A stretch of 60,826 nucleotides of DNA from the NCBI GenBank assembly GCA_043825735.1, contig JBDRRP010000093.1, forward strand, positions 124,001 to 184,826. The letters run 5' to 3'. The translations under genes were made by a program, and so were the position numbers. Origin of the DNA: Pseudomonadota bacterium. Lineage in GTDB: Bacteria > Desulfobacterota > Desulfobacteria > Desulfobacterales > JBDRRP01. Below, piece by piece: positions 1,401 through 49,701 of this stretch; the first letter of the stretch is position 1, and every line of letters begins with the position of its first letter. Below the pieces are notes generated by a model that saw only the letters and a list, made by a program, of their open reading frames with translations, was not told the DNA's origin and ran no database searches.

Positions 1401-2138
1401 TCACTTGATGGGAAACACGACCCGGCATTTCAAACCGGCCGGCAGGGCATCGTTGGGGTTGGGCAGCTCCAGCCGCACCCCGAAGGTCCCGCTGGCCGCA
1501 TCGACCACCCGGTCCACGATGATCACGCGGGCGCTGTAGGCGCGCGCCGTGTAGGTTTCAGGCTGCACGTCCGCGGTCATCCCGACCGTAATCTTTCCAA
1601 AAAATTCGACCGGTACGATGACTTCCACAAACAGGGGCGTGAGCCGCACGATTTTCACAATCGGGTCTTCACCGACGTATTCGCCGGGCGACAGGAAGCG
1701 CTCCACCACCACGCCCTCGATGGGGCTGCGGATGGTGCGGATGGCCAGTTTTTCCCGGGCCTCCCGGAGTTGGAGTTCGGCAATCCGGAATTCCGTTTCC
1801 AGCTCGTCCTTGTCGTTGACGGAAATGAGTTTCTTTCGGGACAATTCTTCGTTGCGGGCGACTTTGCGCTTGCCGAATTCCATCCGTGCGGCCGCCAGAT
1901 CCACCGCAGCGGTTTCGCTCTCGGAATGAAGACTGGCAATGATCTGCCCCGCCGCTATCCGGTCACCGCGCTCAACGGATATCGCTTCCAGGATTCCGGG
2001 CACCTGACTGCTGACGTTGACGACCGCACTCGGCTCGATAAACCCTTCAAAGGATCGCCCCGGCTGGGCATTGGCGCCCTGGGCCCCAAAAGCGATCAGC
2101 AGTGCTGCGCAAAGGCAGCAGCGAACGATGGACAGCAT
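1401..2138 (-). CDS. Periplasmic adaptor / membrane fusion protein (HlyD/RND type) with signal peptide
   Basis: Lipoyl halves VSSQVPGILEAISVERGDRI and IRSPIEGVVVERFLSPGEYV, a short coiled hairpin and VVDAASGTFGVRLELPNP. ATG 2138 follows GGGGAAGGAAG and opens a signal peptide ending ANA-Q. The ORF-track extension to 2210 runs into a repeat. Confidence 0.88.
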   Translation of the reverse strand: MLSIVRCCLCAALLIAFGAQGANAQPGRSFEGFIEPSAVVNVSSQVPGILEAISVERGDRIAAGQIIASLHSESETAAVDLAAARMEFGKRKVARNEELSRKKLISVNDKDELETEFRIAELQLREAREKLAIRTIRSPIEGVVVERFLSPGEYVGEDPIVKIVRLTPLFVEVIVPVEFFGKITVGMTADVQPETYTARAYSARVIIVDRVVDAASGTFGVRLELPNPNDALPAGLKCRVVFPIK

Positions 2139-2184
2139 AAATCTTCCTTCCCCAGAAATGGCTTCAAATCTTGATGACAATGTT

Positions 2185-2275
2185 ATCACCACGAAGTTCA
2201 CGAAGAGCACGAAGGTTTTCTACCACACTTGTTTTCAGGTTTTCTTCGTGCACTTCGTGGCCTTCGTGGTTCACA
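2185..2275. repeat. Palindromic REP/MITE-like element, (CACGAAG-nn)3 ... (CTTCGTG-nn)3
   Basis: ATCACCACGAAGTTCACGAAGAGCACGAAG ... CTTCGTGCACTTCGTGGCCTTCGTGGTTCA. Its reverse complement closely matches 52703-52788, including part of the spacer. Confidence 0.85.
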
Positions 2276-2341: not shown

Positions 2342-4336
2342 CTACTCTGATCGGCCGGAAAAGGACAGCATATCGCCCCGGCGTGCATCCTCGCCAAGCA
2401 GTGCTTTCCGGATTTTCGCATGCATCCGTTCCACTTTTTTCTGGGCATTCAAAATGGCGCGCCTGGCCAGCCAGCGCCACAGCGGGGAACCGTTTCCGTC
2501 GACCCGCCGGGCCAGCCACCCGGAAAGTCCGCCCCGGCCGCCCTCCAGGATCGGGTCCTGAAGGGAGACAAAGGCCTCAAAGCTTCCCGGATCGCCCAGG
2601 CGGCCGCAGCGCCCGGCCAACTGCCGGTCGATCCGCCCCGCCTCGTGGCGCTCGGTGAGAATCACGTGCAGTCCGCCGCGGTCCACCACACCCGGACCCA
2701 GATGGATATCGGTCCCCCGCCCGGCCATATTGGTGGCGATGGTGACGGCCCCGGTCTCTCCGGCGCGGGAAATGATCCCGGCCTCCTCCTGATCCTGCTT
2801 GGCGTTGAGCATCTGGTGGGCCAACCCCATGGCGCCGAGCTTCCGGGCAGCGGTTTCAGAAGCGGCGACGGAGCGCGTGCCCACCAGGATCGGGCGCCGC
2901 GTACCATGGATCTCGCGGACCCGCTCGGTCACCGCTTTCCATTTTTCCGCTTCCGTGGAAAAAATCCGGTCGGGATAGGCCTTTCGCTGCATCTTCCGAT
3001 AGGTGGGAATGGGAAAAACGCTCAGACCGTAGGTGCGCCACAGTTCGCGGCGCACTTCCCTGGCGGTCCCCGTCATGCCGGCCAGGATAAGATACCGCTT
3101 GAAGAAACGCTGGTAACTGATGCGGGCCTGCGTCTCCGGCGGCAGCGTCATCTCGCAGCCTTCCTTGACCTCCAGCAGTTGCTGAAGCCCGCGCTCATAA
3201 GAACGATCCGCCATGACCCGGCCGGTGAATTCGTCGACAATCTGGATTTTCCCCTCACGCACCAGGTAGTGCTCGTCCCGGCGGAACAGATGCCGTGCCG
3301 TGAGGGCCATGCGCACGATCTCCGCCCTTCGGACGTCTCCGGTCCACAAGGGGCCCAGCGGTTTGGCCCATTCACGGATCTGCTGTGCGCCGGCGGGGGT
3401 CAGCGTCACCGACCGGGCGCCCAGATCCACCCGAAAATGCGGCCCCGGCGTGCACCGGTCCGCCAGCTCCAGGGCCTGGGCCATGAAAATGTGCTCCTCG
3501 CGCCCGCCCGCGGCTCTGGAAATGATCAGCGGTGTTCGCGCCTCGTCGATGAGCACGCTGTCGGCCTCGTCGACGATGCCGAAATGCAGCCCCCTGAGCA
3601 GCAGCCGGTCGGTGCGCCCGGCCGCCCCATAAAGCTGCTCCGCCTGCAGTCTCAAACGGTTGGGCCGTCCCTCCAGGACAATCCAGTCCCGGAGGTAATC
3701 AAAGGCGATCTCCTTGTTGGTGCAATAGCACACATCCGCGCCGTAGGCATCACGCCGGGCGGCCGGGGCCTTGCCGTGGACCACGCAGGCGACCGTGAGC
3801 CCGAGAGCCCGGTACACGGGTCCCATCAGATCGGCATCGCGCCCGGTCAGGTAGTCGTTGACCGTAATGACGTGGACCGGGATACCGGCCAGGGCGGCGG
3901 TTCCGGCAGCCAGGGTGGCCGTGAGGGTCTTGCCCTCGCCGGTTTCCATCTCCGCCACCATCCCCTTGAGAAGTACTCTGCCGCCGCAAATCTGGGTGTC
4001 GAAGTGGCGCTTGCCGAGGGTTCGTGAAGCGATCTCACGGATCAGGGCGAACGCGCGGCTCACATGATCGTCGCGCAGCCCGTCGCGGTGCAGCGCCCCC
4101 CGCAGACGGCGCGTTTCCGCACTCAACGCGCCCTCCGTTGCCGCGGCCAGCACTTTCCCGTGCCCGTCGACCGTCGATATGAAACCGGCCATCCAGGCGC
4201 GCCGCCGGTGGGCCAGTCGGAGAACACCGGCCGCGGCCTGGCCGGCCAGGCGATCCAGAAAACCGGCCTCGTCATCCGCGCGTTCAGGGCGAAGCACGCA
4301 GGTGGCGGGCGGCAGCGCGGTGATATCCGTCGGCAT
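2342..4336 (-). CDS. Secondary SecA-like DEAD-motor ATPase (SecA_DEAD + cross-linking domain + NBD2), C-terminally truncated
   Basis: Motifs EMETGEGKT, VHVITVNDYL, IVDEADSVLIDEARTPLIIS, LAGMTGTA, TNMAGRGTDI and RIDRQLAGRCGRLGDPG. Only 664 aa; it stops early in the scaffold helix, with no wing domain, two-helix finger or zinc tail. Confidence 0.92.
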   Translation of the reverse strand: MPTDITALPPATCVLRPERADDEAGFLDRLAGQAAAGVLRLAHRRRAWMAGFISTVDGHGKVLAAATEGALSAETRRLRGALHRDGLRDDHVSRAFALIREIASRTLGKRHFDTQICGGRVLLKGMVAEMETGEGKTLTATLAAGTAALAGIPVHVITVNDYLTGRDADLMGPVYRALGLTVACVVHGKAPAARRDAYGADVCYCTNKEIAFDYLRDWIVLEGRPNRLRLQAEQLYGAAGRTDRLLLRGLHFGIVDEADSVLIDEARTPLIISRAAGGREEHIFMAQALELADRCTPGPHFRVDLGARSVTLTPAGAQQIREWAKPLGPLWTGDVRRAEIVRMALTARHLFRRDEHYLVREGKIQIVDEFTGRVMADRSYERGLQQLLEVKEGCEMTLPPETQARISYQRFFKRYLILAGMTGTAREVRRELWRTYGLSVFPIPTYRKMQRKAYPDRIFSTEAEKWKAVTERVREIHGTRRPILVGTRSVAASETAARKLGAMGLAHQMLNAKQDQEEAGIISRAGETGAVTIATNMAGRGTDIHLGPGVVDRGGLHVILTERHEAGRIDRQLAGRCGRLGDPGSFEAFVSLQDPILEGGRGGLSGWLARRVDGNGSPLWRWLARRAILNAQKKVERMHAKIRKALLGEDARRGDMLSFSGRSE

Positions 4337-4380
4337 GATCGTCTACCTCAAATTGAGCAATGGCCCCGTGAAAACACTGA

Positions 4381-4467: not shown

Positions 4468-4488
4468 AAAACGCTTTTAACAGTTTCA

Positions 4489-6633
4489 TCAGACATTGAA
4501 CTGGCTCAGCAGCGTCCTTCGAATGCTTCGATAGAGGCGATACGCCAGCGGCTCGGGATCGTGTTCGAACCGCACGTAGACGCGCTCGCCGATCGCCCCG
4601 CGGGTGAGGCCCGCAATGTGCACCTCGAAGTGGAACAAATTCTCAAAGGCCTTTGGCGTCTTATTCTCTCGCGGATCCAGGGCCAGCGCGCCGCCGCCTT
4701 CCAGACTGAGGGCAAGGCTGGGAAGATCCGCCGATGCGGCCGGAACCTCCCGGATCACCTGGGCCGGTAGCTCCCGGCCGATCGCCCCCGCCCGCATGGC
4801 AGAGACCCTGCGGGTATGGCGCCGCACCTGATCCACGCTCCCCTGCGGCACGACGATCCGCGCAGTCACCTGGGAAAAATCGACAATGGTCCCCAACGTC
4901 ATACCCCGCCGGGCAAAACGCCGGGGCCAATCCTCCGGATGCGATATAAAAAACACGCCGGCCGATGGGCTCCGAATGTTCAGATGCTCCTTTTCCTGCA
5001 TTTTTTCGTCAAGTTCGGCGCGGATTCGCGCGACCTCGTCGGCGAGAATGTCGGCCTCGATGCGATCCAGCGTAACGCTGAGCCGCTGGCGGGCCTCGTA
5101 CTCGCGCAACTGCGCGGCAAGCACGGCGGCTTCCGCATCCAGCTCGGGGTTGTCGCAGGCAATGAGCAGCGCCCCGGCAGGCACCGGCTGCCCCGCCGCG
5201 GCGGCGATCCGCTGGACAAAACCGTCACTGCCGGCAACGACCTGGGAAAATGCCGGCGTCCACAGCACGCCTTCGACCACGGTAAAGGAGGGCACGGGCA
5301 GCGCCAGCAGCATCAGGATCAGGGCGGCCGCCGATCCGCCCACGATGGCGAGCACGCGCCCCCGCCGGCGCTGCATGGCCAGATCGGTAACCGCATGATG
5401 GCAGAGCTGATACAGCGGCAGCACCAGCACGCTGAAAAGCCCCCACGCGGCGAGCCCCACACCGACGGCAAAAAATTTGCCGGCCACGTACATGGCGATC
5501 CGGATCATGATGAAAAGGCGGTAGACAAACGCTGCGATCCCGTAAAATGCCAGCCATGGAGCCTCTCCGTCGGCAGTCGCCGGGCTCTTTACCTCGTCGA
5601 TACCGACCAGGTAGCGTTTGAAAAGATACCCGACATACTGGTTTGCACGCCCCGCGAGATTCGGAATCTCAAGAAAATCCGAGAAAACATAATAGGCGTC
5701 AAAACGAAGCAGCGGGTTGCCGTTGAAAAAAAGGGTCGACACCCCGGCGATCACGATCACGTTGAAAGCGAGCGCCCGAACCGCGCCCGGTTCCACGGCC
5801 ACCCACACCCACATCGCCAGCGCGGCAAGAAACATTTCGGTCAGAATGCCGGCGCCGCCGACGGCCATGCGCCGGTATTTACCCGGAAACGCGGAAGAGG
5901 CGGTGGCGTCAACATAGGGGACCGGCATGAATACCAGCAGCATGATGCCCATATCGTGGACCTCCCCGCCCCAGCGCTTGACGGTGTAGGCATGGCCGAA
6001 CTCGTGAAGGGCTTTGATGACCGGATAGGCCAGCCAGAGCAGAAAGAGGTTTTCAAGGGCGAACACCCGATCGGCCAGGCCGGCCGTCAGCGCCTCCCAG
6101 TGAATACCGGCAAGCATCAGGGCGGAGACGACGGCCAGCGTCCAGAGCGTCAGCCCGAGCCAGCCGAACAGGGGACGCACCAGAAACTGCGTGTCGGAAA
6201 GAAACCGGTCCGGATCGAACAGGGGGATCCGGATGGCAAACGGCGATTTGAGCTGCCCGACGAGGCGGTTTCGCTTTTCGAGCTGATGGCGGCGGTGCAG
6301 ATCGGCGATGTCCGGAGGCATGTCGGATTGAAGCACATCGGCCTGGTAGAGCTGGGAGAGCAGCCGGATCACCTCTTCCTGGGTGGGCATGTCGTCGCCG
6401 AGCCGGGCGCAGGCGGCCTCCCAGATCTCGTTCAGGGCGCGCCGGCCGTCCATGAGCCCGATGATGGCATAGGCCTCCCCGGAAAACCGGTGGCAGCGGC
6501 CGGAAGCATGATCCTCCAGTACGTACCAGTCGGTGCCGCGGTAGGTGTGGCGATGAATCTGGGCGTGGCTCCGCAGCCGCGGCTTCAAGTCCGCCACCCG
6601 GTACCACGACTCGCTGAAAAGAGATTCCGCCAT
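4489..6633 (-). CDS. PqqD/RRE-like domain + M50 (site-2) membrane metallopeptidase + HlyD-like adaptor fusion
   Basis: N-terminal WYVLEDHASGRCHRFSGEAYAIIGLMDGRRALNEIW...VIRLLSQLYQADVL (winged-helix PqqD-like). HEFGH zinc motif and NGNPLLRFDAYY among several TM helices. C-terminal lipoyl/coiled-coil MFP region (IRSPSAGVF). Likely start ATG 6633. Confidence 0.88.
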   Translation of the reverse strand: MAESLFSESWYRVADLKPRLRSHAQIHRHTYRGTDWYVLEDHASGRCHRFSGEAYAIIGLMDGRRALNEIWEAACARLGDDMPTQEEVIRLLSQLYQADVLQSDMPPDIADLHRRHQLEKRNRLVGQLKSPFAIRIPLFDPDRFLSDTQFLVRPLFGWLGLTLWTLAVVSALMLAGIHWEALTAGLADRVFALENLFLLWLAYPVIKALHEFGHAYTVKRWGGEVHDMGIMLLVFMPVPYVDATASSAFPGKYRRMAVGGAGILTEMFLAALAMWVWVAVEPGAVRALAFNVIVIAGVSTLFFNGNPLLRFDAYYVFSDFLEIPNLAGRANQYVGYLFKRYLVGIDEVKSPATADGEAPWLAFYGIAAFVYRLFIMIRIAMYVAGKFFAVGVGLAAWGLFSVLVLPLYQLCHHAVTDLAMQRRRGRVLAIVGGSAAALILMLLALPVPSFTVVEGVLWTPAFSQVVAGSDGFVQRIAAAAGQPVPAGALLIACDNPELDAEAAVLAAQLREYEARQRLSVTLDRIEADILADEVARIRAELDEKMQEKEHLNIRSPSAGVFFISHPEDWPRRFARRGMTLGTIVDFSQVTARIVVPQGSVDQVRRHTRRVSAMRAGAIGRELPAQVIREVPAASADLPSLALSLEGGGALALDPRENKTPKAFENLFHFEVHIAGLTRGAIGERVYVRFEHDPEPLAYRLYRSIRRTLLSQFNV

Positions 6634-6649
6634 AATGTAAAAAACCCGA

Positions 6650-7209: not shown

Positions 7210-7357
7210 AGTGTCCATTCAGAGGCGGTAGATTTTGGTTCCTGGCAAGGCCCGAGCACTTTTGGCACCGCAGGCGTAGCGGCAGCTACGTTGAGGATGA
7301 CAAAAGGTGCGAGTACGCCGCCAGGGGCCAAAAGATGCCGCCGCTGGATGGACACTA
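7210..7357. mobile_element. MITE-like element (~148 bp) with ~37-bp imperfect terminal inverted repeats
   Basis: AGTGTCCATTCAGAGGCGGTAGATTTTGGTTCCTGGC ... GCCAGGGGCCAAAAGATGCCGCCGCTGGATGGACACT(A), with a central hairpin CGTAGC-GGCA-GCTACG. No coding capacity. Confidence 0.75.
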
Positions 7358-9223
7358 AGGCCAGAAAGCCCATATTTTAAGTCGCACCCACTCCCTGAGC
7401 GGGCGTGTCCAGATGCCCATCAGATTTCTCCGATCCACGGATATTTTTCCCACGCCCTCCATGCCGGGACGCAGGCGCTCGGAGGCCGTCTCCGGGTGCG
7501 CCTCGACGCGGAAGAAATTGAGCCCTTCCTTTGCCGCGGTGATCGGTGTGATCTTTTTCACCACAAAGGGGATGCGCTCCCGGGGCACCGCGGAAAGCAC
7601 GAGCCATCCTTTCTGGCCCGGCTGGATGTCGGCGATGGCGCGCTCATCCACCTGGAGAATCAGCCGGTAGGTACCCAGTGGCGCGACCTCAAAGAGAATT
7701 TCCCCTTTATCGACGGCACCGCCGAGCCGCTGGCTCAAGTCGCCGCTCAGGACGAGGCCGGTGAAAGGGGCCGTGATCACGGTCCGTGCGAGCCGGCTTT
7801 CAACCAGTTCAAGGCGGGCCTCCGCCTGGTCCAGTTGCGCCTGGATGATATAGGCCTTGGCGCGATCATGGCTTGCCGAAGCCTCCTGATACTGGCGCTG
7901 GTACTGATTGCGTTTGCTCAGCCAGTTCACCCGTTCGATGCGAAGCTCCCGGTCGTCGAGCGTGCACATGGGCGCATCCGGCGCGATCACGTCCCCCGCC
8001 CGCACCTGGGCGGCTTTCACGAAGCCGTCGAACGGCGCCACGATCGCCCGTTTCACCGCGCTTTCCAGCAGCGCATCCGCGGTAACGGTATATTCTCCGG
8101 TTTTGAGGCTGAAAAAAAACGCGGCGGCCATCACGGCGGCGATAACCAGTTTCCGTCCGGTATGGCGGGGGCCGACGATTTTTTCCATTTCAGCCCGAAG
8201 CGCATCACCGATCTTGAATATCAGGTTCCGGTCGTTTCGGCGCTGGATCTCAAGCGTGGGAAACAGCAGGGCGCCAACGCTGTTGCAAAAGCCGGCATCC
8301 TCCGCGGTAAACGGCTTGTCGCCGGGCCGCTCCAGCGTCAAGGCGCCGAGATAGCCCCCGTCTCCATAAAACGGAACGGTCAAAATCGATCCCGCACCGT
8401 ATTGACCGGCCAGTTGCGCATGGTCCCGGATGATCACCGGATCGCTGCCGCCGGGCAGTGGGTAGAAAATTTCCTTGCGCTGGACAATCGCCTCGTCCAT
8501 GGCCAGCCCGACGGCGCGCACCAGATTCATGCGCTCGCCGATCTGGGCACTGTGAGAGATCGCCGCGATACGCGCCCGGCCTTTGTGAAGAAAGGCCAGA
8601 CTCACCCGATCGCACTCCAGATCGGTCGACAACTCGGTCACAAACGCCATGGCGGCGCTCTCGGCGGTACGCTCAGACACCACGCCCGCCAGAAGATCGA
8701 CGGCCGATCGGAGGCGGCGCATGATCAGCGCATCTTTTTGCTGCGCCTGCCTTCGGACAAAAAGCGCCATCCATGAAGCGCCCCACTGGAGATGTTCCAT
8801 GACGCGCTTGAGCTGGTTTTCGGAGACGGCAAAAACTTCAATGGCGATGACCCCGCTCAGGGTGTCATCGATCAGGATGGGAAAGGCCACAGCGTAGAAA
8901 GCCCCCCGGGTCACCGGGGCGCCTGCCTCAGGCGCCAGCGTTACGAGCAGCCCGCAACGCGCTTCGATGGCCCGCTCGGTCACTTCGGCGATCCGCGCCG
9001 GGTCCGCGCCGGTCTCCGGCCATTTGGCGACCGGCGTAAAGCCCTCCCCGCCGGGTTGCGCCAATACGACGACGCCTTGAACTGCGTTTGCAATGAGCGC
9101 GCACTGGATGGCAAGCCAGCAGCGGCAATAGTCTTCACGGCCGCCGGCTTCTGCGAAACGGGCCCACAGTTCCGGATCGATGCCGCCGGAAGGTTCTTCA
9201 GCGCTGTCTGAACTGTTCTTCAT
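7355..9223 (-). CDS. GAF-domain-containing HlyD-family periplasmic adaptor
   Basis: Two N-terminal GAF-like segments (AVAFPILIDDTLSGVIAIE; ILTVPFYGDGGYLGALTLER), a TM helix, then an MFP (IVAPFDGFVKAAQVRAGDVI; ITAPFTGLVLSGDL; LRPGMEGVGKI). Confidence 0.88.
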   Translation of the reverse strand: MKNSSDSAEEPSGGIDPELWARFAEAGGREDYCRCWLAIQCALIANAVQGVVVLAQPGGEGFTPVAKWPETGADPARIAEVTERAIEARCGLLVTLAPEAGAPVTRGAFYAVAFPILIDDTLSGVIAIEVFAVSENQLKRVMEHLQWGASWMALFVRRQAQQKDALIMRRLRSAVDLLAGVVSERTAESAAMAFVTELSTDLECDRVSLAFLHKGRARIAAISHSAQIGERMNLVRAVGLAMDEAIVQRKEIFYPLPGGSDPVIIRDHAQLAGQYGAGSILTVPFYGDGGYLGALTLERPGDKPFTAEDAGFCNSVGALLFPTLEIQRRNDRNLIFKIGDALRAEMEKIVGPRHTGRKLVIAAVMAAAFFFSLKTGEYTVTADALLESAVKRAIVAPFDGFVKAAQVRAGDVIAPDAPMCTLDDRELRIERVNWLSKRNQYQRQYQEASASHDRAKAYIIQAQLDQAEARLELVESRLARTVITAPFTGLVLSGDLSQRLGGAVDKGEILFEVAPLGTYRLILQVDERAIADIQPGQKGWLVLSAVPRERIPFVVKKITPITAAKEGLNFFRVEAHPETASERLRPGMEGVGKISVDRRNLMGIWTRPLREWVRLKIWAFWP

Positions 9224-9428: not shown

Positions 9429-9764
9429 TCAATCGGTCGATAGTTTTCCGAATCGGTTTTCGTATTCTTTCATGATATTGCCCAGCAGCGCCGCCAATCT
9501 TTTCGCGGCGAAGGGATTGAGAATAATACGGTTGGTCAACTGAATCGAAAGCTCCTGCTGGCCGGTATGCCAACTCTGGTTGGTGCCGAAGAGCAACGTC
9601 ACTTCTTCTCTCGTGCTCGACACGTTGCACACATTGGCATAGGTGCTCTGCATCTTGGCATCATCCCAGCGGACCGTGCGTTCGACGCGCTCTTCACTTC
9701 CCTTTGCGGCGCCGGCGCCGCGTTCTGTTTCCTGTTTTTCGGTACTTTCAGTTTTCTGAGGCAT
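9429..9764 (-). CDS. DUF3467-family small protein
   Basis: STYANVCNVSSTREEVTLLFG...RIILNPFAAKRLAALLGNIMKEYENRFG pattern. ATG 9764 follows AGGAG and overlaps the end of the giant gene by 17 bp. Confidence 0.85.
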   Translation of the reverse strand: MPQKTESTEKQETERGAGAAKGSEERVERTVRWDDAKMQSTYANVCNVSSTREEVTLLFGTNQSWHTGQQELSIQLTNRIILNPFAAKRLAALLGNIMKEYENRFGKLSTD

Positions 9765-12700
9765 GAGATCTCCTGTCAATGAGTTTTAATAACGGGAAAC
9801 TGATGAATGGGACACCTTCTTTCTCACCGGGCGGCATGTGGCCGGACGAGGACTTCTCAATCCGCCCGTCCCGCCAGCGGCGGAACCGCTTGTTTTTCAT
9901 CTCCCGGTCGAGTCTTTCGAATCCATCGCGATCCAGGCGCGCGCCGCTCGTGGAAGGACCGGATGACGCGAGTCCCCAACCGGAAAGTCCTGCCACCAAC
10001 GCACTGAGCTGTATATCATCGTGGGCCGTTTCCGGCAACGGATGCGCGCTTCTCTCCGGCCTGTCCACATCGGCTTCCAGAACGCTGCCATCGAAAGCGG
10101 TGGATGTCGTCGTCCCGTCGGGCAGCGTCCTGATGACGGTGCCGTCGGGAAGGATGATCGTTGTCGTTCCGTCCGGAAGAACGATCGTTATCGTTCCATC
10201 CGCATCGGTCTGGACCAGGGTACCGTCCGAGGACTGCACGGAGGCGGTGCCGTCCGGCCGGATTCTCTGGATGGTCCCGTTTGAGTAGATCCGCTCCACA
10301 GTACCGTCCGGCAGGGTGTGGGTTTCCGCTTCGACGACATCGCTCCCGGGGATTCCCGAACGGTTGCCCGGCATCATCCCGTATCCGCCCGAATGGCTGG
10401 GCATCAGGCCGCCGATGACTGCCGGGGAAGTAATCAGGGTGCCGAGCCCGGATCCGAACACCGTGCCTGGGCCGGTCAGACCCAGCAGGCTGCCGAAAAT
10501 CACCGAAGGCGTCGTTTCGTCGAAACCGGTGCCCACCGGGTTTCCGAAGAGCATGTGCAGCGGCGGGTAGACTTCCACGATCTTTCCGTTGACGATCACG
10601 ACATACCCGTACTCACCGATCAGGGCGTCGGCCGGAAACGATCCCAGGCCGGTATCGATCCCCTCGCCGCCGAAGATAACGCCGGTCCCGGTGCTCCCGT
10701 CGAGATAGTCGACGCCGCCGTTCGGGCAGAATGCGGTTTCGGCGAAAGTCGGCTCACCGCCGGCAAAGACGACCCGCCCGTTGTCTCCGAAAAGGATGTC
10801 GAACCCGTCGCCGCCAAGAAGTATATCACTGAAGGCGCCGCCCATCAGAATATCGTCGCCGTCATTTCCGGTGATCTGATCCTCTCCGCCGCTTTCGCAA
10901 TACGTTCCGAATAGCAGCGCCGGCAGCCCGCCGGCAAGGTTCAGTACGCCGTCGTCGCCCAGAAGGATGTCATCACCGCCGGCGCCGGTGAGAATATCGT
11001 CACCGGAGCTGCCAAAAGCGACATCGTCGCCCTCCCCGCCTATGATGATGTCGGCGCTGCCAGCAGTGCCGAAGGTCCCGCTGCTGACGATCTGTACGGG
11101 GACGCCGCCGGCAAACGAGATCGCGCCGTTGTCCCCGAAAAGGATGTCGCCGCCGTCACCGCCCATCAGCCGGTCGCTGCCGCCGCCGCCGGCGATCATG
11201 TCGACGCCGCCGTCGCCAGAAAGAACATCGTCGCCGCCGAGATCCGGATCCGTCGTCTCCAGGCTCACGAGCACACTGCTGCCGGTGCCCGTACTGAACG
11301 CGGCAGCCCCATTGTCTCCGAAAATGACATCGCTGCCGCTGTCGGAGCCGATCGCCAGACCGGTAGCCGGATCGACGTTGACGAAATCCGAACCCGCGCC
11401 GCCGAAAACGACATCGCTGCCGTCGCCGGAGGCGATCTGGTCATCGCCGCCGAAAGTCGGGTCTGCCGTGGCCGCCCCGGAGACCAGGCCTGCCACGGTC
11501 ACGTCGACCGCGCCGTTGTCGCCGAGGACCAGATCCGCGCCGCTGCCCGTGATGATCGTATCGTTTCCGCCGCCGCCAAGCGCGATGTTGTCACCGTCAC
11601 CGGCATCCAGAGTGTCGTCACCGGTCGTGCCCGGATCCACATCGGTGGTAAGAACGCGGGTGGCGCGCCCGTCCGTATAAAAAACATGTCCGTTGTCGCC
11701 GAGCAGGATGTCGTCGCCTTCCAGAACCGTGACCCGATCGTTTCCGGTGCCGCCGAGAACGACGTTGTCACCGGCGCCGCCAAGGACCTGATCGTTGCCG
11801 CCCAAGGCCAGATCGATGGAGAGTATGTCGGTGATCCGACCGCTGCCATCGAAGGCCACCTGGCCGCTGTCGCCCAGGATCGTATCGTTGCCTGCGCCGG
11901 TAGTCAGGGTATCGCTACCGAAGCCGCCCATCACCACGTTGACGCCATCGCCTCCGTCGACCGTGTCGTCGCCACCCAGACCGTTCTCAGTGGCGGCCAC
12001 CTGAGTCAGAACGCCGGCCGTATAAACCGCCTCGCCGTTGTCGCCCAGGATCGTATCAGCGCCAATGCCGGAAGTAATGCTGTCGGCCCCGAAGCCGCCG
12101 ATGACCACATTGGCACCGTCGCCGCCGTCCACCGTGTCGTCGCCACCAAGGCCGGTTTCGGTGGATGCTACCTGCGTCAAGATACCGGCCGCGTCAAAAA
12201 GGGCTGCGCCGCCGTCACCCAGAATCACGTCCACACCAGCGCCGGTCGTAATCGTATCGCCGGCCACGCCGCCCATCACCCGGTTGTCACCGTCACCGGC
12301 AGTGATGGTGTCGGCCCCGCCGGTGGCGCCGTCGGTATCGGTGCTGCGGATCTCGGTGAGCACGCCGGCGGTATACACCGCGGCGCCGTTGTCACCCAGG
12401 ATCGTGTCTGCGCCCGCTCCGGCGGTTATGCCGTCGGCGCCAAAACCGCCGATGACCGTATTGACGCCGTCGCCCGCATCGATGGTGTCGTCGCCCCCAA
12501 GCCCGGTTTCGGTAGAGGCTGCCTGCGTGAGGACGCCGGCCGCGTCAAAGAGCGCCTGGCCACCGTCGCCTAGGACCAGATCCACACCGGCGCCGGTCGT
12601 AATCGTATCGCCGGCAACCCCGCCCATCACCACGTTGTCGCCATCGCCGGCAGTAATGGTGTCCGCCCCGCCGGTGGCGCCGTCGGTGTCGGTGCTGCGG

Positions 12701-15700
12701 ATTTCGGTAAGCACGCCGGCTGTGTAAACTGCCTCGCCGTTGTCACCCAGGATCGTGTCTGCGCCCGCTCCGGAAGTAATGCTGTCAGCGCCAAAACCGC
12801 CGAGGACCAAATTAGCGCCGTCGCCCACATCGATGGTGTCGTCGCCGCCCAGCCCGGTCTCGGTGGATGCCATCTGCGTAAGAACGCCGGCCGCGTCAAA
12901 AAGTGCCTGGCCGCCGTCGCCAAGAACGACGTCCACGCCGGTGCCGGTCGTAATGGTGTCGCCGGCAACCCCGCCCATCACCCGGTTGTCGCCATCGCCG
13001 GCTGCGATGGTGTCCGCCCCGCCGGTGCCGCCGTCGGTGTCGGTGCTGCGGATTTCGGTGAGCACGCCGGCCGTATAAGCCGCGGTGCCGTTGTCGCCCA
13101 GGATCGTATCGGCGCCGGTGCCGGCAGTAATGCTGTCGGCCCCGAAGCCGCCGATAACCGTGTTGTCCCCGTCGCCCGCATCGATGACGTCGTCGCCGCC
13201 AGTGTCCATGGATACGGCGGACAGGGCCGCCAGATCACGGATGACACCGTCGGTGCGGTCCTCCCGTGTCACACCGGCGGAAAGGTCAAACAGCGGCTGA
13301 CCGTTGACGCTGCTCACCACAATTCGGCTGCCGGCAGTGCTGACCACAAATCCGGTAACGCCGGTTGCCGCCAGATCCGCGGTGAGGGCATCGGCCAGTA
13401 TTGCGGCAATGCTTTCCGATGTTTCTACGGCCTCGTCCAGCACCGTATAGGTTCCGGTTGCCAGCGCAGATCCACCAGCGGCCAGCGCCACGCGCCAGGT
13501 TTCACCGACGGCCGCCGCGCCGGCCAGCGTCACACCCCGACTGGCAACACCGGCGGTGATATCCGTGGTGGTGCCGATCTCTGGGGATCCGTTTCCGAGC
13601 ACCGTCACGGCCTGCCCGGCATCGTCAAGATAGGTGACCCGGCCCAGATCGCCAAAGATGATGTCGTCAGCGCCGCCGCCGGTGAGCGTGTCATCGCCGT
13701 CACCGCCGAAAATGATCAGCGGCAATGTTGAAGCCGCGGCGTTGAGTCCGTCGTTTCCGTCCTGGGTGTTTACGGCAAAGAATCCGTCAGTGGCCGCGTC
13801 GAGGTTCACGGTGACCGCATCGTCCCCGGCGCCGGTATTGAGCGTCGTGATGGTGCGCACGCCGTCGGTGCGGTGGGTGCTTTCCACGCTGACGGTATCG
13901 CCGCCGGTGCCGGTCCACACGGTAATTCCGCCGGCGAAGGTGCCGGCCGGATCTCCGGTCTGGTAAGTGATGCCCGCCGGCGCCAGGCCCGTGACGGCGG
14001 CGCTGGTGATCACCACGGCCCCGTCCGCGCCGGTGGCCCCGGAATCGTCGATCTCCAGGGTATTGATGCCGCTGCCGGCGATGATGTTGAGGTCCCCCAG
14101 CACATCGTCCAGTGATTTGTCGTCATTGGAGACCCGGATGGTGTCGTCTCCGGCGGCCGCAGATAGGGTCGTGACCGTGGATAGCGCGGTTCCCGCCACC
14201 AGAAACCGGTCGTCGCCCGCGCCCAGGTTCACGTTCAGGGTTTCCACGCCGTAGTAGTTGAGGCCGTCGACCCGGGTGTCCACCGTAACGGCTCCGCTCA
14301 GGGCGGCCGTGTCCATGTCGCTGATGGCAAGCGCCCGGTATTCCCCCTGGAAAGTCACCAACAGATCGCTGCCGGTCTTTCGCACCGACACGTTGTCGGT
14401 GTGGGGCAGATCGCTTCTGGACTTGTTCGGGTTGAGAATGGGATCGAGGGCGGCCTGGACATCAGCGGCACTCGCATTGAAGGCGATGGAACCGGTCCAG
14501 ACGATGCTGGCCTGATCGGCGGCGTCGTAAACATAGTCGGTCCAGGTGACCACACCCGGATTGTTGCGGTCATAGGTATATACCGGCGTGAAACCGCGCA
14601 GGCCGATGCGATAGGTGCCGGCGGTGGCGTCCACGGCAAGTGTCTGGGCGGTGTTGACGGCCGGAGAGAGCGATCCATCCCGGATCGTTTCGATGTCCAC
14701 ATCGGCGGAAATGCTCGCGCCGGCGGCCGCCTCCAGACCCGTGTCCGCAAGGGTTTCCGCCCAGGTGAGCGCCGGCAGGTCGATGCCGGCCAGCTCACCG
14801 GTGAAGGAGACCGTGTAGGTGATGGTGTAGCCCGATATCGATTTTTCCACCTGGATCCCGTCGGCGCCGTAAAGCGCGGCGAGCCGCGCGGCAAAATCGG
14901 TCTCGGTCATGTTGTAACCCAAGGTGACCGTGGCCGCGTCCGCGCTGCGCGTCACGTTGGCGGCGGCCGAAAGCCCGGCATCGGTTCCGAACCCGGCCGT
15001 GGTCAGCTTGAAGGTGCCGCCGGTGGCCCGGACGGTGATTTCCACGGTCTCCGGATCCGAGGGCATGTCCAGACCGGTTAGGGTGCTCTGGGTGAGGCGG
15101 CCGCCATTGGCCTCGGTATCCCCACTGTCGTCGACGATGAGCGTGTCGGCCCCGCCGCCGCCCGCCACGGTCAGCAGCGCCCCGATCTGATCCATCCGGT
15201 GGGCGTCGCTGCCCACGGTGACCGTATCGGCCCCGGCGTTTCCGTAAATGGCGGTGTGGCCGGAAATGGTCTTCACGTCGATGGCGTCGTCGCCCGCGCC
15301 GCCGAAAACGGCAGTGGCGCCGGTATGAGTGGATTCGATGGTCAGGGTATCACTGCCGAAACCCAGGTGGATCTCCAGGTCCTCGAAGTTGGCGTACTGG
15401 ATCCCGCCGGGAAGGGCGACGCCCCCGAGCACCGTATCCGGTCCCATGCCCAGGCCTGAAATCCGGTCTTCGGTCAGCAGGGCCGTATCACCTGAAGGAC
15501 TGTTGGTGTTGTACACCCGCAGGGTGTCCACCTGGTCGGCCTCGATGACGTTCACGTTGGGATTCACCGGAGTGTAGTAGAATTCGTCGCCGGCCGCCGG
15601 CGCCGCGCCGGCCGGCCAATCCGTGGTGAAGTAAATCGTCGTGCCGGTCACATGATCCACGGTCATGACCGTGCCCATGAGCGCGCCGCTGGTGATGGTC

Positions 15701-18700
15701 ACCGCATACAGGGCGTCGTTCATTCGTGGATCGAAGCCCGACTTCTCGCCGGCGAGCGGGTCGTAGTAGGTGATCTGGGCATCGGTGAAGGTCGCCAGGC
15801 CGCCAACGGTGCCGGCGCTCTCGATGTCGCCATCGGGCACCGGCCAGTTGGTTTCCCCCGGCAGGGTGAAGGGGGTGTTGAGGTAGACGTCCTCTGAAAC
15901 CCGGACGCCGCCGTCGAGGGACAGCGGCCCGCGGATCCGCGATACCTGGGCGTTCATGGCGGCAAACACCTTGGCGTCCCCGCCGTCCACGAACGCATCG
16001 TCCACGGCCGTGACCGTGACGGTCTGGGGGATGTTCCAGTCGGCGTCGGTGAAGATCAGTTGCGGCGTGTCCACGGTCACCTGAATCTCGTCGTGCACAC
16101 CGTTGCCGGCTTCGTCGACAAAGGCGAGATCCGCGTTGTAGGTGCGCGTGATGAGGGGGGTCACGTCGACGGTGACGGTCTCCCCGGCCGCGGGCGCGCT
16201 GGTCAGGACCACGGTGAAGGTATCGGAGACCTCGCCGTAACCGGACAGCTCGGTAGCGGTCAGGTAGCTGATCTCGATGGTGCTGGTGTTGTCGATGCCC
16301 GCCCAGGCCGTATCGATGCTGTAGGTCTGGGTTTCGGGATCGTAACCGGTGATCTTGGCGGTCTGCCCGGCGCCGGCCCCGCCGGTGACGGTGATGGTCT
16401 TGCCGTTCAGGCTCAGCACGTCGGGGTTGTAGCGGTGGTTTTCGATCGACATGTTGAGCTGGTAGGACAGCCCCTTGGCGACGCCGTACCAGCCCTCTTT
16501 CGCGGGCCCGTAATCGTCCACCGAATCGCGGTAGGAAAGGACGTTGAGCTGATAGGTGCCGGCGGTATCGAAGGTGTATTCGAGGAAGGGATCGAAAGTG
16601 CTGGCGCTGCCGGCATCGATCCAGACGCCGTTGATGTTTTGGGCCAGCAGATTGCCGCCCGCATCGAAAAGACGCAGCGCTGGACTGGTCACGATGTCGT
16701 GGAATGTGATGCCCGTAAGAATCGTATGAACGCCCAAGGGCCCCAGGTCGATGGTCTGGTAGTGATTTTCCTTGATGGTGCTCTGGAGCACGTTGCCGTA
16801 GTCCACATCGAAGACCGCGTGGACCGTCCCTTCACCCAGGGAGGTCTCGACAGTGTCGCCGTCGAGGCCGCTGATGGTGAGTGTGCCCGCGGTGGCGGTG
16901 GCGGTGAAATGGGCCGCGCTGTCAGCGGTGATGAGATCCGCCAGTGCGGCGGCCACGTCGGCCACGGTTTCTCCCGAACTGGGGCCGGGAGGGGTCTGTA
17001 CGGTGGTGCTGTAGGTTTTGCCGTGCACCGTCACCGCCCACTTTTCCCCTTCAAGGAGGCGGCCTTCCTTCTGGAACTTGACGACCGCGGAATTGTAATG
17101 GTAGCGGCCGTCGATGCTGCCGGAGTCCGAACCGGCAGCCACCCGGAGCTGTTCGACCTTGTCCACGGCCACGGCCGCACCGCTCGTCTGGGTGATGCGC
17201 AGCGTGCCGCCGCCCACGGCAGTGGCCGTGGCGCCGGAGATGACGCCGGCCAGTCCGCTGGCGATGTCGTTTAGATTGCCGTCACCGGATGATACCGTGT
17301 ACGTATGCGCGGTGCCGCCGACGGTGATGGTCCACCGGTCGCCCACGGCCACCGGCCCGTCCAGCACGATGTCCTGGGTCCAGTCGGCATCGGGCGTTCC
17401 GGCGACGGTAAGATCGCCCACCGTCACCGGCGGTTCCACATGGGTGGTCTCGGAAAACGCAGTGCCGTTTTTGTTCACGATGTAAACGGTCGCGCCGTCC
17501 CAAATCGCGGTGTAGCCTCCGGCCGTATCCGAATTGATCTTGTCGGCCAGTCCTTGAACCACGTCGGCGAGGCCGCTGTCGCCGGCCTTGACAGCGTAGG
17601 TATATGTAGCGACGCCGATGCCATCGTCCAGTTCATCCAGTGCCACCTGCCACTGTTCACCGATATTGATCCCGCCGCCAGGGGCCACGCTCAAAGGGGT
17701 CGCAGTCGCTTCGCCGTCAACGCCCGATTCAGGTTGACCGGTGATCGTAAAGGCTGATGTGAACGGCGCTGCACTCGTATTGACCACCACCAGGGTCCCA
17801 CCGTCATGGCTCGCCCGGTAGTCGCCGCCGGCAGCGTTGATCACGCCCGCCAGACCCGCGGCCACCGCCGCCGTGTCGGCATCGCCCGCGGCCACGGTGT
17901 AGTCGTAGGTGAGCTCACCGGCCCCCGCATCCAGCGACACCGTCCAGCTCTCGCCCGCGGTCACGGCCCCGGCGAGCGCCAGCGTATCGCTTTCCGCGTC
18001 GCTGCCCGATTGGGCGGCGCCGCCGTTAACCGAATACTCGGAGTTGAACGCCGCAGCGCCCGTGTGCACCACCACCAGGGTCCCGTCGTCATGGCTCGCC
18101 CGGTAGTCGCCGCCGGCAGCGTTGATCACGCCCGCCAGACCCGCAGCCACCGCCGCCGTGTCGGCATCGCCCGCGGCCACGGTGTAGTCGTAGGTGATTG
18201 CCCCTGCCCCCGCATCCAGCGCCACTGTCCAGGTCTCGCCGGCGGTCACGGCCCCGACGAGCGCCAGTGTATCGCTTTCCGCGTCGCTGCCTGCGGCCGG
18301 CGCCGAAGTCACCGTATAGGCCGAGCTGAACGCCGAAGCGCCCGTGTGCACCACCACCAGGGTCCCGCCGTCATGGCTCGCCCGGTAGTCGCCGCCGGCA
18401 GCGTTGATCACGCCCGCCAGACCCGCGGCCACCGCCGCCGTGTCGACATCGCCCGCGGCCACGGTGTAGCCGTAGGTGAGCTCACCGGCCCCCGCATCCA
18501 GCGCCACCGTCCAGGTCTCGCCCGCGGTCACGGCCCCGGCGAGCGCCAGTGTATCGCTTTCCGCGTCGCTGCCCGCGGCCGGCGCCGAAGTCACCGTATA
18601 GGCCGAGCTGAACACCGCAGCGCCCGTGTGCACCACCACCAGGGTCCCGCCGTCATGGCTCGCCCGGTAGTCGCCGCCGGCGGCGTTGATCACGCCCGCC

Positions 18701-21700
18701 AGACCCGCAGCCACCGCCGCCGTGTCGAGATCGCCCGCGGCCACGCTGTAGCCGTAGGTGAGCGCCCCGGCCCCCGCATCCAGCGCCACCGTCCAGGTCT
18801 CGCCTGCGATCACCGGCCCCGCCAGAACGATCGTGTCGCAGGCTGTGGCCGCGGACGTCATACTCCCGTCGGTTGTCGGTGCGATACCGGTGGTGACGGT
18901 AAACCCGTCGGCACTGGCCAGCGAAATGATATCGCCGGCAACCTGCGGGTTGAAAGCGCCGTCGATCAGGTTTTTCAGCCGGGCGGCGACACTCGCCAGA
19001 TCATCCCCTGCGGTCACTTTGGTGGCGTAATCGGTCCCGTTGATGCGAAGGGTCCATATCTCGTTGGGCGTCACATTTCCGCTCAGGGCGATGTCCGCCG
19101 ATGTAAAGGTGACAGCACCCAGTGTGCTCTGGTCCGGTGTCCCGGCAATCACGGCAGTGGCCTTCGGGCTGTCACCGGTCTGCGCAAAATCGAGGGTGAA
19201 ACCGCCGGCCGCACTCAGGCAAATCGTATCGCTTCCTACGGTCGCAGGGCTGTAACCGGAGGATACGGCGGCGATCAGACCGTTTCGCACATCGGTCAGC
19301 GTATCGCCGGTCAGGACCGTGTAGCTGCATTCCGCCCCATCGATGAGCAGGCTCCAGCGCTCTCCGGCCACCGGAGCGCCGGTGAGCTGCAGCTGAATCC
19401 GCGCATCGGTGAACGACACCCCCTGGGTGCTTTCCGTCCGGGTCACCTCACCGGCCACCTGGACCTGCTGGGTCACCGCGTCGATCCTGAAGCCGTTGGG
19501 GTCCTGGATGTCGATTTGCCCGTTGGCCGCGTCCACCGACGCCGTGGCGGTGTCGAAAGCGCCGGTGTCGGCATTGATGACGGCCGCGATGCCGGCCATG
19601 ACGTCGGCAAGGTCCGCATCCCCTGCCTGGACCGTGTAGGCGTAGCTCTCGCCATTCAGTTTGACATTCCACACGTCGCCGGCTTCCACCAGGCCGTTCA
19701 GATCGACGGCGCCATTCAAATAATAATTCAGGCCATCTGGCGAGTTCTCGATGACGCCGGCCACGGGACTTAGCATGGCGTCGGTGATCACGAACGTGTA
19801 GTTGTCGACGGATTTGTCGCCGACACCGATCACCGTGGTGTAGGGGGTGTTGTAATCGACGCTCCCGACGGGCGTATTGCCGATGTCCTCGTTATAGTAG
19901 ACGTACCAGGTGTTCTGGTCGTCGATGCTCTGCGCGATGTTGTTGACGGTCTCTTCTTCGAAGACGGGACTCGGGGAAAAGGTGAAGGTGCCGGTCTTGT
20001 GGTTTCCCACCGAAACCTGAAGATCGTAGTCGGCACCCAGGGGAACACCCGAAATGCCGCTCGTGAGCCAGGCGTTTCCCACTTCGATGATGTAGGTGCC
20101 GGCCTCTGACAGCGTGGTGGCGGCGTAAGCGTCGAACCAGGTGCTGCTGCCGCCGTTGCCGGTGGCGGGCGCGCTGTAGTTGTTCTTTGTGACAAGGCTT
20201 CCGTCAGGGCCGAATATCCGCAGGGTGGCACTCCACCAGACCGAATCGAAATTGCCGCCGATGTATTCGAATCCGTGATCGATGTCGAAAGCGGCGCCGA
20301 TGGGCCCGCCCGAGAGCATGTCGGCGGTGACCACGAAGGCGTAATAGTCCCGGGTGCCGTCGCCGGTCCCGGTGACCGTGAGATGGGGGATGGTCTCCGA
20401 GTCGCCGATGTCTTCGGAATAACTCACCCCCCAGCTGCCGATTTCCAGATCCTGGGGCACGTTCCTTGAATCGTTGCCGCTCATCTCGTTGAGTTCGGCC
20501 ACGCCGAAGTTGCCCACGAAATGCGTGCCGTCGATCTGGCTGCTCACCTGGCCTGTACCCATGACCACTTCGGTGGTGGGCTCGATGACATCCGTCGAGT
20601 GGCCGGTCTGAGTGATGAGCACGCCGGCAGTGCCGTCGAGGATTTCCGCGTCCACGAAGGCCGCGGAAATGCCGTTGTAGCGTGCGTCTCCGCTGACCAC
20701 CTGATGGGTGATCCGCGCGAAATGATCCCCTTCGGTGACGGCGTCGGCGATGGCTTCGACAAATACGGTCTGCTGCACGTTCCAGTCGGCGCCGGTGAAG
20801 GTCAGGGTGCTCACGGGGTTGCCCCCGCCGTCGATGATCCGGACGTCTCCGGTGGCATCGGTGGCGATGTGGATGGTCACCGTCTGACCGGCGGCCGGCG
20901 CGGCCGTCAGCACCACCGAGTAGGCATCGGTGGACGACAGGGCGCCGCCGGCGGCAAAGACCGCACCGGCTTCGGCCACCACGGTCTCGCCATCGGTCTG
21001 GGCCACCACCACACCGGCGGCATCGTTATCCACCGCCTCGACGCTGAGACTGCGCACGGCCAGCCCGTCGTACTCGCCGCCATCATCGGCGCGGCTGCCC
21101 TCGACCACCGCGTGCTTGATCTCATAATAACGGAAGCCTTCGGCCAGGGCGTCATCGGGTGCCGTTACCGTAACGATCTGCGGGATGAACCAGTTGTTCT
21201 TGTCAAAGAGCAGGGTGACCCCCGCCTCGCTGCCGTTGAGGGCCACGCCATGGCCGCCGGCGGTCGTCTCGGCTTCCGTTGGCAGGGTGGGACTGGCCGT
21301 GACCCGGACGTCCTCTTCAGGCGATCGCGTCAGGACAACGGCGTACTGGGCCAGCACCAGGCCGGCCGGCGCCGCGGCATTTTCAAAGACCCGCAGGTCT
21401 CCCTGCAGCGGCACGACGATAACGCCGGCCGCTTCGTTGTCGGCCACGTTGGCCACGACGTCCTTCACGTAAACACCGGTATAGTCCGAATTGACGACGT
21501 CGCTGGTTACATCGAAATCGATGACGCCGCTGTGGCCCATGAGATCGTTGCTCACCACGGTGATGGGGGCGTTGGCATCGGCGCCGCCGGCCACGTTGAA
21601 GGTGTCGCTGCCCAGACCGCCGATAAGGACCGTCTCCACGGCGGCGTTGGTGCTCTCGATAAAGAACGTATCGTTTCCGGCCACCGCGTCGAGCACCACT

Positions 21701-49433: not shown

Positions 49434-49701
49434 TAAATCGCTCCGCACTTCATTGATCGCATTTCCCCCTGGGAATGTTCATCCGTATACGCTCGGAAAA
49501 CCACCCGGGCTTAGCCCGTGCCGGCCAGTTCGCACGATCCGCTGCCAGTGGCAACCACGCCTGAAAACAGTCCCCTGTTATCCGGCCGGATGGACGCACC
49601 CTTCCCGGGACCGTGATTGGTATCAGCAAATGGTAAAACGCGGTGAGGCCTTTAAGCTAACCCGGCGCCTCCGACGGTGTCAAGGCTATCGGGCAATAAA
49701 G

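Follow-up and report, generated by a model that had tools for sequence, protein, structure and literature searches.

We analyzed a 60,826-nucleotide stretch of DNA (the window) from a genome deposited as Pseudomonadota bacterium and placed by GTDB in the Desulfobacterota (assembly GCA_043825735.1, contig JBDRRP010000093.1, positions 124,001 to 184,826), focusing on a gene at 4489..6633 within a candidate protein export cassette. The gene lies on the minus strand, with its ATG at 6633 and its stop codon ending at 4489, is present in one copy in the source genome, and encodes a 714-amino-acid protein whose single chain starts with a tag-binding domain and continues with a membrane-embedded zinc protease and a duct protein of the periplasm; we refer to it as the fusion. 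The N-terminal domain, assigned by Pfam, structure alignment, and profile search, has the fold of PqqD and of other recognition elements (RREs) for ribosomally synthesized and posttranslationally modified peptides (RiPPs) and spans residues ~10 to 105 (6319..6606). It is followed by an M50/site-2-protease membrane domain with seven hydrophobic helices, delimited by domain models and an AlphaFold2 (AF2) model (residues ~130 to 446; 5296..6246), and by a periplasmic membrane fusion protein (MFP), or adaptor, domain found by Pfam, Foldseek, and structure alignment (residues 447 to 714; 4492..5295). The AF2 model of the 714-residue protein has a pLDDT of 92.5 and a pTM of 0.80. A first-pass annotation had reported a PqqD-like N terminus, an HEFGH motif, an NxxPxxxxD(A) motif, and a C-terminal MFP in one polypeptide, and the Pfam, alignment, and structure matches all agree with that description. 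A search of the PDB by sequence with the whole fusion gave nothing meaningful, so the protein has no solved relative at the sequence level. The NCBIfam model for daptide RRE-site-2-protease peptidases (NF041824) matched residues 18 to 408 (E = 1e-42) with a score of 146.5, below its cut-off of 300.

The predicted N-terminal fold has three strands and three helices (AF2), and strand β3 (residues 46 to 50) and helix α3 (residues 85 to 97) form the predicted leader groove. In structure alignments, the AF2 model matched two RRE-leader complexes, TbiB1 (5v1u; Z 10.0, rmsd 2.8, 83 of 84 residues aligned) and 6jx3 (Z 9.8, rmsd 2.8, 84 residues aligned), as well as PqqD (5sxy; Z 8.9), and the domain folded alone gave Z scores of 8.2 to 8.5 against the same three structures. 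A profile built from 73 N-terminal domains matched PqqD 3g2b in the PDB (E = 1.2e-4), and the Pfam PqqD model matched residues 44 to 106 (E = 0.0011), under its curated cut-off. Foldseek returned no match at E ≤ 0.001 for the isolated domain, so the RRE assignment rests on the structural aligner and the profile; on these two lines of evidence, the earlier proposal that residues 1 to 110 are PqqD-like held.

We compared the protease domain across an alignment of 150 sequences (the query, 140 of 150 listed 50% representatives after 10 partial ones were dropped, and 9 closer relatives), which were picked by score and not by motif. H210, E211, H214, N304, N306, P307, and D312 were invariant in all 150. 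They fall in the HEFGH zinc-binding/catalytic motif (residues 210 to 214; 5992..6006), which sits in a transmembrane helix, and in the NGNPLLRFDA motif (residues 304 to 313; 5695..5724), which contributes the third zinc ligand, D312. A membrane-reentrant β-hairpin (residues 228 to 244; 5902..5952), defined by DSSP and by contacts in the co-folding model described below, is the predicted substrate edge strand. Position 313 is G in 111 sequences, A in 38, and S in 1. The fusion has A, and as the first-pass annotation had stated, the metal-ligand Asp is kept where the usual DG reads DA. We considered DA as the mark of a dead enzyme and rejected this because 38 of the 150 sequences share it. Pfam PF02163 scored 19 bits on the fusion, under the cut-off of 27.2, and was above it in four homologues. 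The domain aligned with RseP (7w6z; Z 9.3, rmsd 3.0, 131 residues) and SpoIVFB (8vjl; Z 9.2, rmsd 3.9, 132 residues), values that are middling for helical folds. The metal-binding and catalytic residues are intact, and we regard zinc-dependent proteolysis as the putative activity. The loops between the seven hydrophobic helices, whose limits we set by hand from the AF2 model, alternate in their mean number of Lys and Arg residues (9.2, 4.7, 6.1, and 3.5 versus 0.9, 0.0, 0.5, and 1.7). The odd number of helices and this alternation suggest a topology with the N terminus in and the C terminus out, which would put the RRE and the active site on the cytoplasmic side and the MFP domain in the periplasm. 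The C-terminal domain has the hairpin, lipoyl, and β-barrel parts of a membrane fusion protein following its membrane anchor and was matched by Pfam HlyD_3 (E = 3e-8), Foldseek (E = 2.5e-11), and structure alignment (Z 14.5).

On the same strand, at 9748..47691, lies an open reading frame (ORF) for a giant candidate cargo of 12,647 amino acids, in which domain models found a leader, a DUF4347 domain, and RTX-like repeats; translation may actually begin at the TTG of codon 17. The leader carries the LEPR-XLL/Planc_extracel motif at ORF residues 45 to 60 (47512..47559), matched by NF012209 with 30.9 bits against a cut-off of 17, and the leader peptide named by the first-pass annotation corresponds to 47515-47565. 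Pfam PF07595 matched this leader below its cut-off (E = 0.0025; 17.9 versus 25.5) and matched 32 of 40 leaders at E ≤ 10. The 39 distinct leaders have a variable, basic N terminus (25% K/R), then Φ-E-x-L-E-P-R-Φ-L-L-S-A-D, and no conservation beyond that, a logo that is partly circular because most leaders were selected by the NF012209 model. This leader ends LLLSAD and is not of the double-glycine type. DUF4347 is the first Pfam domain past the leader (46453..46863; E = 7e-52) and has no relevant solved relative by sequence. It contains an S/A-H-G motif and a later Y/F-G-C motif, and 18 of 18 matches in the fetched loci end in Cys. We take the H-G and G-C motifs to be reminiscent of the His/Cys dyad of caspase-like cysteine proteases, and by this analogy, the domain could process the cargo itself. 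A subset of cargo tails (window ~9840-10010 and loci L003, L010, L025, and L026) has a Gly/Ala-rich hydrophobic segment with ..GxSGWG.. followed by basic residues, which resembles a membrane anchor or sorting tail; most tails are without it. The leader motif was reportedly proposed as a signal by Studholme in 2004. The available part of PMC8567305 reports it on 52 genes, with 8 of the 10 longest proteins among them, and presumes it to be a novel signal for export. In the literature found, no receptor, peptidase, or export route is assigned to the motif.

We co-folded residues 1 to 420 of the fusion with zinc and a 38-residue leader region (window 47482-47595), each chain being given as an alignment. 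The leader scored 0.78 and the best of three controls 0.01; the mark applied is reached by 116 of 157 solved pairs and 2 of 215 mismatched pairs, rates that apply to this job only approximately. Between runs, at least 82% of contacts were shared, and the pLDDT of the partner was at least 56. The surest contacts in the model pair cargo Q46 to L50 with RRE strand 46 to 51. Cargo F47 packs against fusion residues 50, 54, 91, 94, and 95, cargo L50 packs against residues 38, 46 to 49, 247, and 325, and cargo R53 contacts residues 243 and 315. Confidence extends over peptide residues 11 to 27 (to D59), and the interface includes K207, H210, E211, H214, hairpin residues 238 to 244, N304, and D312, with additional contacts at RRE residues 46 to 54 and 87 to 98 and at hairpin residue 231. 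One peptide therefore spans the recognition domain and the catalytic site in the model. The modeled leader extends the RRE sheet as an extra strand beside β3 and runs on to the zinc site, which supports binding. The first-pass annotation proposed that the RRE captures the LEPR-XLL leader. The co-folding model predicts this pairing, complexes of a similar kind are already solved for RREs and for SpoIVFB, and the mechanism of the annotation is well supported by computation. We consider it very likely that the RRE binds the leader. That the M50 domain then cleaves the leader is probable.

The genomic distribution of the two elements was consistent with this pairing. Counts of related loci refer to a set of 80, the best among 563 genome loci, with many loci cut at contig edges, and NF012209 matched in 48 of 50 cassette genomes picked from these 80 for longer contigs. 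Eight of nine leader-bearing genomes in a sample of 60 from the same order had a close homologue of the fusion (E < 1e-80), and 9 of 12 in a phylum sample of 300 genomes had the fusion, where a match meant E ≤ 1e-20 with a single-protein query. We also surveyed 301 Pseudomonadota genomes for the fusion (72 genomes) and for the two leader variants described below (type A in 22 and type B in 55, 64 in union). All 64 leader-bearing genomes encode the fusion, and the leader was found in 0 of 229 genomes without it. When the 17 genomes that trained the type-B model were removed, the fusion was still present in 47 of 47 leader genomes. We give no P value for these counts because the genomes are kin and not independent.

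The remaining cassette genes are all on the minus strand, as are the giant ORF and the TolC gene. Domain models identified a stand-alone MFP of 269 amino acids (1401..2210; present in 58 of the 80 related loci), and downstream of the fusion gene is a truncated SecA-like ATPase of 664 amino acids (2342..4336; SecA-like match in 71 of 80) with intact Walker A and DEAD motifs and no wing/scaffold C terminus. Among the 49 complete SecA-like copies, 47 had Walker A and 47 had the DEAD motif, and all ended 120 to 134 residues past the last motor motif, versus 357 residues in housekeeping SecA. On the other side of the fusion gene lie a GAF-MFP fusion of 622 amino acids (7355..9223; Pfam GAF and HlyD_3; 75 of 80) and a DUF3467 protein of 116 amino acids (9429..9779; Pfam; 27 of 80). 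Beyond the giant ORF is a TolC family outer membrane channel of 493 amino acids (47967..49448), which matched TIGR01844 above its cut-off; TolC was found in 6 of 80 loci. No ABC transporter is present in the window cluster, and ABC ATPases occurred in 8 of 80 loci but never immediately beside the cassette genes. The source genome (6.8 Mb, 160 contigs, 100% complete by markers) encodes one leader-bearing protein and, separately, a full-length SecA. SapC, a frequent neighbor, was not found in this genome. Gene order was conserved across several phyla, the closest named relatives were from the Desulfobacteraceae, and the fusion family took in 7,291 of 8,000 scored candidates, with 4,193 50% clusters at E ≤ 1e-30.

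The gaps between the cassette genes (4337-4488, 6634-7354, and 9224-9430) are full of hairpin repeats. The gap between the GAF-MFP and fusion genes is 721 nucleotides long, versus ~15 nucleotides in most relatives. Several of these repeats recur 11 to 74 times genome-wide and are therefore likely REP-like insertions. A scan of the locus for promoters and terminators was uninformative. A second DUF3467 gene (G000:C93:122036-122272) lies ~1.7 kb left of the window, and a 302-amino-acid protein at 249-1157, which has no Pfam or NCBIfam match, has homologues near the cassette in 3 of 80 loci (L031, L033, and L047). The stretch at 49884-60132 is unrelated and contains a TPR-GAF sigma-54 activator, a TRAP transporter pair, a SEC-C/DUF6398 protein, and a DUF4276 and AAA_21 ATPase pair.

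The cassette occurs in two subtypes. Distant homologues of the fusion (25 to 30% identity) keep TolC, the MFP, and a shorter GAF-MFP. The SecA-like gene was absent from 18 Desulfobacterota loci of this distant type within the stretches fetched and from 20 Pseudomonadota loci, for which ~4 kb of downstream and as much as 34 kb of upstream sequence was covered, and we rejected SecA as a core part of the machine. A neighboring protein, mostly with DUF4347, begins with a variant (type-B) leader in 17 of the 20 SecA-less loci, and this leader is homologous to the type-A leader (hhalign, 96%). The variant reads LExRx(M/L/V)(F/L)D(G/A) in the SecA-less loci L113, L123, L129, L131 to L150, L171, and L172. 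In a FastTree tree of 105 proteins, type A forms one side of a branch with a support of 97. Among type-A pairs, leader position +7 is S in 12 of 12 and position -2 is acidic in 12 of 12; among type-B pairs, position +7 is D in 19 of 19 and position -2 is acidic in 1 of 19. The search pattern made no demand at either position. As judged from these sequences, the leader variant tracks the protease clade. RRE residue R49 is invariant across all 71 type-A sequences, and the same position is relaxed in type B, being R in 14, K in 8, E in 4, and Q in 2 of 31 sequences. Open frames following type-A leaders have a median length of 7,484 amino acids (29 matches, 13 above 8,200), and those following type-B leaders have a median of 2,370 (100 matches, none above 8,184), with contig-end-cut frames and cross-matches included in both sets. 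Because the SecA-less type has the shorter cargo, SecA is apparently an accessory that serves the longest cargo.

In the Pseudomonadota sample, the SecA-less subtype outnumbered the SecA type, and homologues were seen on plasmids of Azospirillum, Hafnia, Escherichia, and Citrobacter. Azospirillum brasilense Sp7 carries a SecA-less cassette (AMK58_RS22620-22640), and Methylobacterium extorquens AM1 carries one that is type A according to the table of Kamneva et al. (META1p2399-2402). In two SecA-less loci, the M50 gene is followed by a protein of ~175 amino acids with no Pfam match (L121:8287-8835 and L129:8123-8638), which in L121 is preceded by SapC. A further SecA-less cassette (L119:11392-18119) adjoins cytochrome/propeller proteins with signal peptides in a back-to-back arrangement, and 20 kb of sequence showed no leader-bearing cargo.

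We consider it reasonably likely that this machine carries out leader-directed, protease-coupled export with the N terminus of the cargo going first. The fusion would be the inner membrane subunit that reads and cuts the signal in an ABC-independent, TolC/MFP-type export of LEPR-leader proteins. Its cytoplasmic RRE would bind the Φ-E-x-L-E part of the leader as an added β3 strand, with cargo F47 and L50 in predicted hydrophobic pockets, and the R-L-L-L-S-A-D part would run along the edge strand to the zinc site on the cytoplasmic side. Since the model output gives no scissile bond, we place the cut only between R53 and D59; in the register of the daptide leaders, it would follow R53. From domain content and gene linkage, we infer that the fused MFP, the GAF-MFP, and the stand-alone MFP dock the subunit to TolC and that the cargo leaves N terminus first to the surface. 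In the subtype with the longest cargo, the truncated SecA would be an accessory motor. The subtype without SecA would need a different drive, possibly translation together with folding on the outside, which is the weakest step of the scheme. An N-terminal signal would allow export during translation and would therefore suit a 1.3-MDa chain.

Several observations weigh against this scheme. The protease domain is not an obvious polypeptide pore, and the pore is a weak point of the scheme. In type-B cassettes, an ATPase was seen in 0 of 20 and 0 of 18 loci, so the scheme does not explain how type B is energized. The Pfam PqqD and M50 scores of the fusion are below their cut-offs, and non-RiPP winged-helix structures tie with the RRE matches (8hkr, Z 9.3 to 10.4; 9s2t, Z 8.5 to 9.4); with the domain folded alone, 8hkr (9.3), 9s2t (8.5), and 2xdv (8.3) were tied at the top, so the fold by itself does not prove peptide binding. 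The co-folding controls came from unrelated proteins and included neither scrambled nor type-B leaders, and the passing score may partly reflect likeness to the solved complexes 5v1u, 6jx3, and 8vjl. R49 and leader E(-2), which we examined as a compensatory pair, behave as one only in part because 8 of 19 type-B pairs keep R49 with no acidic partner. No leader was found in 4 of 12 genomes with a close homologue in the order sample (8 had it), in 13 of 22 fusion genomes in the phylum sample, where only the type-A model was used, and in 8 of the 72 Pseudomonadota fusion genomes. Conversely, a leader with no fusion match occurred in one genome of the order sample (G043) and in three of the phylum sample (G221, where the best E value was 3e-7, G243, and G257). 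In a literature search that covered few subscription journals, we found no publication joining RRE, M50, MFP, and leader and no experiment on any member of the family.

Type-A cargo often has C-terminal RTX-like repeats, like the substrates of C-terminus-first exporters, and this too counts against N-terminus-first export. It is in keeping with the main alternative, in which the cargo is exported C terminus first, like classical type 1 adhesins, the leader bound by the cytoplasmic RRE anchors it in the channel, and an M50 cut made on a GAF-read signal frees the adhesin. Retention and release in the LapA/LapG system are a precedent for such a mechanism. The binding and cutting geometry of the co-folding model fits this alternative too, RTX-like repeats occur in the C-terminal parts of the cargo in 27 of 80 loci, and the GAF-MFP is nearly ubiquitous (75 of 80). 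A C-terminus-first route for LEPRxLL giants, by way of SapC, TolC, and HlyD, has also been proposed (bioRxiv 10.64898/2026.03.19.712371). In the available text of that preprint, two such giants are made by a Chlorobium symbiont and end up in the partner cell, they are described as having no known transport signals, and M50 is never mentioned. We nevertheless consider tethering and release unlikely. By eye, we saw no C-terminal signal shared by the cargo proteins, and the last RTX repeat lies 37 to 971 residues from the cargo end. Type 1 C-terminal secretion signals are, for their part, poorly conserved. The source genome has no LssB-, PrtD-, or HlyD-type type 1 secretion system (T1SS) protein and no HlyB-type exporter above the cut-off, and the type-B cargo scanned has DUF4347, cadherin, and Ig domains and no HemolysinCabind match. 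Numerous short proteins, often several per genome and distant from the cassette, bear the same leader, which would be expected if it is a targeting signal.

In a second alternative, the M50 helices are the channel and SecA is the ATPase, as suggested in the available part of PMC4452313, and the leader is bound and left uncut or is cut by another enzyme, such as the cargo DUF4347. A channel is needed and no ABC transporter is present, and the DUF4347 motifs are reminiscent of cysteine proteases. The catalytic Glu and the three metal ligands are, however, invariant in all 150 homologues, the leader is modeled onto the catalytic residues, and SecA is absent from type-B cassettes. We consider this alternative quite improbable as a whole; a pore role is compatible with leader-directed, protease-coupled export, and a noncutting role is not favored. 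The least credible alternative makes the giant protein a mere neighbor and has the fusion act as an ordinary RRE peptidase on a small RiPP-like peptide or, in site-2 signaling, on a regulatory membrane protein. In its favor, the closest named model is the daptide leader peptidase and a distant homologue (locus L125) lies in a RiPP cluster. Against it, no modifying enzymes were found in the cassette, all 64 leader-bearing genomes of the Pseudomonadota sample have the fusion, the leader variant follows the protease clade, and the fused MFP and linked TolC point to transenvelope export.

If leader-directed, N-terminus-first export is correct, it would supply a receptor, a peptidase, and an export route for a motif that has stood without a machine in the literature found. 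It would explain how a protein of at least 10,000 residues can exit without a prior stage in which it waits unfolded inside the cell, it would compete directly with the C-terminus-first route that was put forward in 2026 for the Chlorobium LEPRxLL giants, and it would put RiPP leader recognition parts to work in general protein secretion. The cassette is common, being present in about a quarter of the Pseudomonadota genomes sampled (72 of 301), and is found in harmless, tractable strains, and a short, portable leader for the export of very large proteins could be of use in biotechnology. A broader reading, to which we give somewhat less than even weight, is that the fusion defines a distinct class of one-step secretion in which the roles of receptor, signal peptidase, and gate pass from the ABC transporter to an RRE and a site-2 protease. 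LEPR-XLL/Planc_extracel would then be a signal peptide for N-terminus-first, possibly translation-driven export, and SecA would be an addition for cargo from ~8,000 residues upward, including the largest known bacterial proteins.

Among known systems, a functional parallel is provided by the peptidase-containing ABC transporters (PCATs), in which C39-ABC, MFP, and TolC act together, the inner membrane subunit reads and cuts an N-terminal leader, and the cargo exits through the MFP and TolC. The fusion differs in having no C39 domain (PF03412 was unmatched in the source genome), no ABC ATPase, and no double-glycine leader, in being a metalloprotease and not a cysteine protease, and in having the MFP fused to the protease. 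By analogy, it would work like a peptidase-containing exporter without being one, which bears out the first-pass view of a system analogous to C39-ABC exporters but built from unrelated parts. The classical T1SS for RTX adhesins (HlyBD-TolC and LapBCE) shares TolC, MFPs, and giant cargo with Ca-binding repeats. The cassette here has the TolC family channel and the MFP of a T1SS and lacks the ABC transporter as motor, it has three different MFPs, and its conserved signal is N-terminal rather than C-terminal.

Two RiPP systems have a protease of this kind. EpeP/YydH of the Bacillus subtilis epipeptide is an M50 protease thought to cleave and export its substrate, according to the available text of PMC10885120; its model, NF058609, matched the fusion weakly (E = 0.003), and it differs in being Gram positive, in lacking MFP and TolC, and in having a peptide substrate. 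Daptide MpaP/DapP has, like the fusion, an N-terminal RRE fused to an intramembrane site-2 protease, and the daptide leader ELExMEAP shares the Φ-E-x-Φ-E register with the LEPR leader (bioRxiv 10.1101/2023.03.08.531785, available text). In that study, loss of daptide leader L(-7) and M(-4), which correspond to cargo F47 and L50, abolished processing through the MpaB RRE, and cleavage by MpaP was asserted rather than assayed in the text available. The fusion adds a periplasmic MFP and a giant-protein cargo, and it falls outside the daptide RiPP pathway, given its below-cut-off NF041824 score and a scan of the cassette genes that turned up no modifying enzymes, whether of daptide type or other. 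A distant M50 protein with an RRE-like segment in midprotein, at L125:6697-10620 in a nitrile-hydratase-leader/radical-SAM RiPP cluster, possibly links the RiPP and export uses.

The cassette itself is that of the "secondary SecA_DEAD / type-I-secretion-related" locus of Kamneva, Poudel, and Ward (2015; PMC4452313, available text), which comprises GAF-HlyD, M50-HlyD, truncated SecA, HlyD, and sometimes TolC, with no ABC transporter. The fusion belongs to cluster 1 (Peptidase_M50-HlyD) of that locus and has the features of its members. The text seen of that paper names no substrate, RRE/PqqD domain, or leader (the terms PqqD and leader had no occurrence in the main text), although its figure S8 for cluster 1 could show PqqD; Chlorobium chlorochromatii is not in cluster 1 of its S2 table, and the SecA-less subtype lay outside its SecA-anchored search. 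The available text of PMC8277102, PMC12749797, and bioRxiv 2023.11.21.568195 had nothing bearing on the fusion. The parts are therefore not new: the RRE-site-2-protease fusion is known from daptides, and the cassette of M50/HlyD and truncated SecA was published in 2015. What we add to these systems is the pairing of leader and RRE in a co-folding model, the co-occurrence of leader and fusion, and a commoner, SecA-less subtype with a variant leader and shorter cargo.

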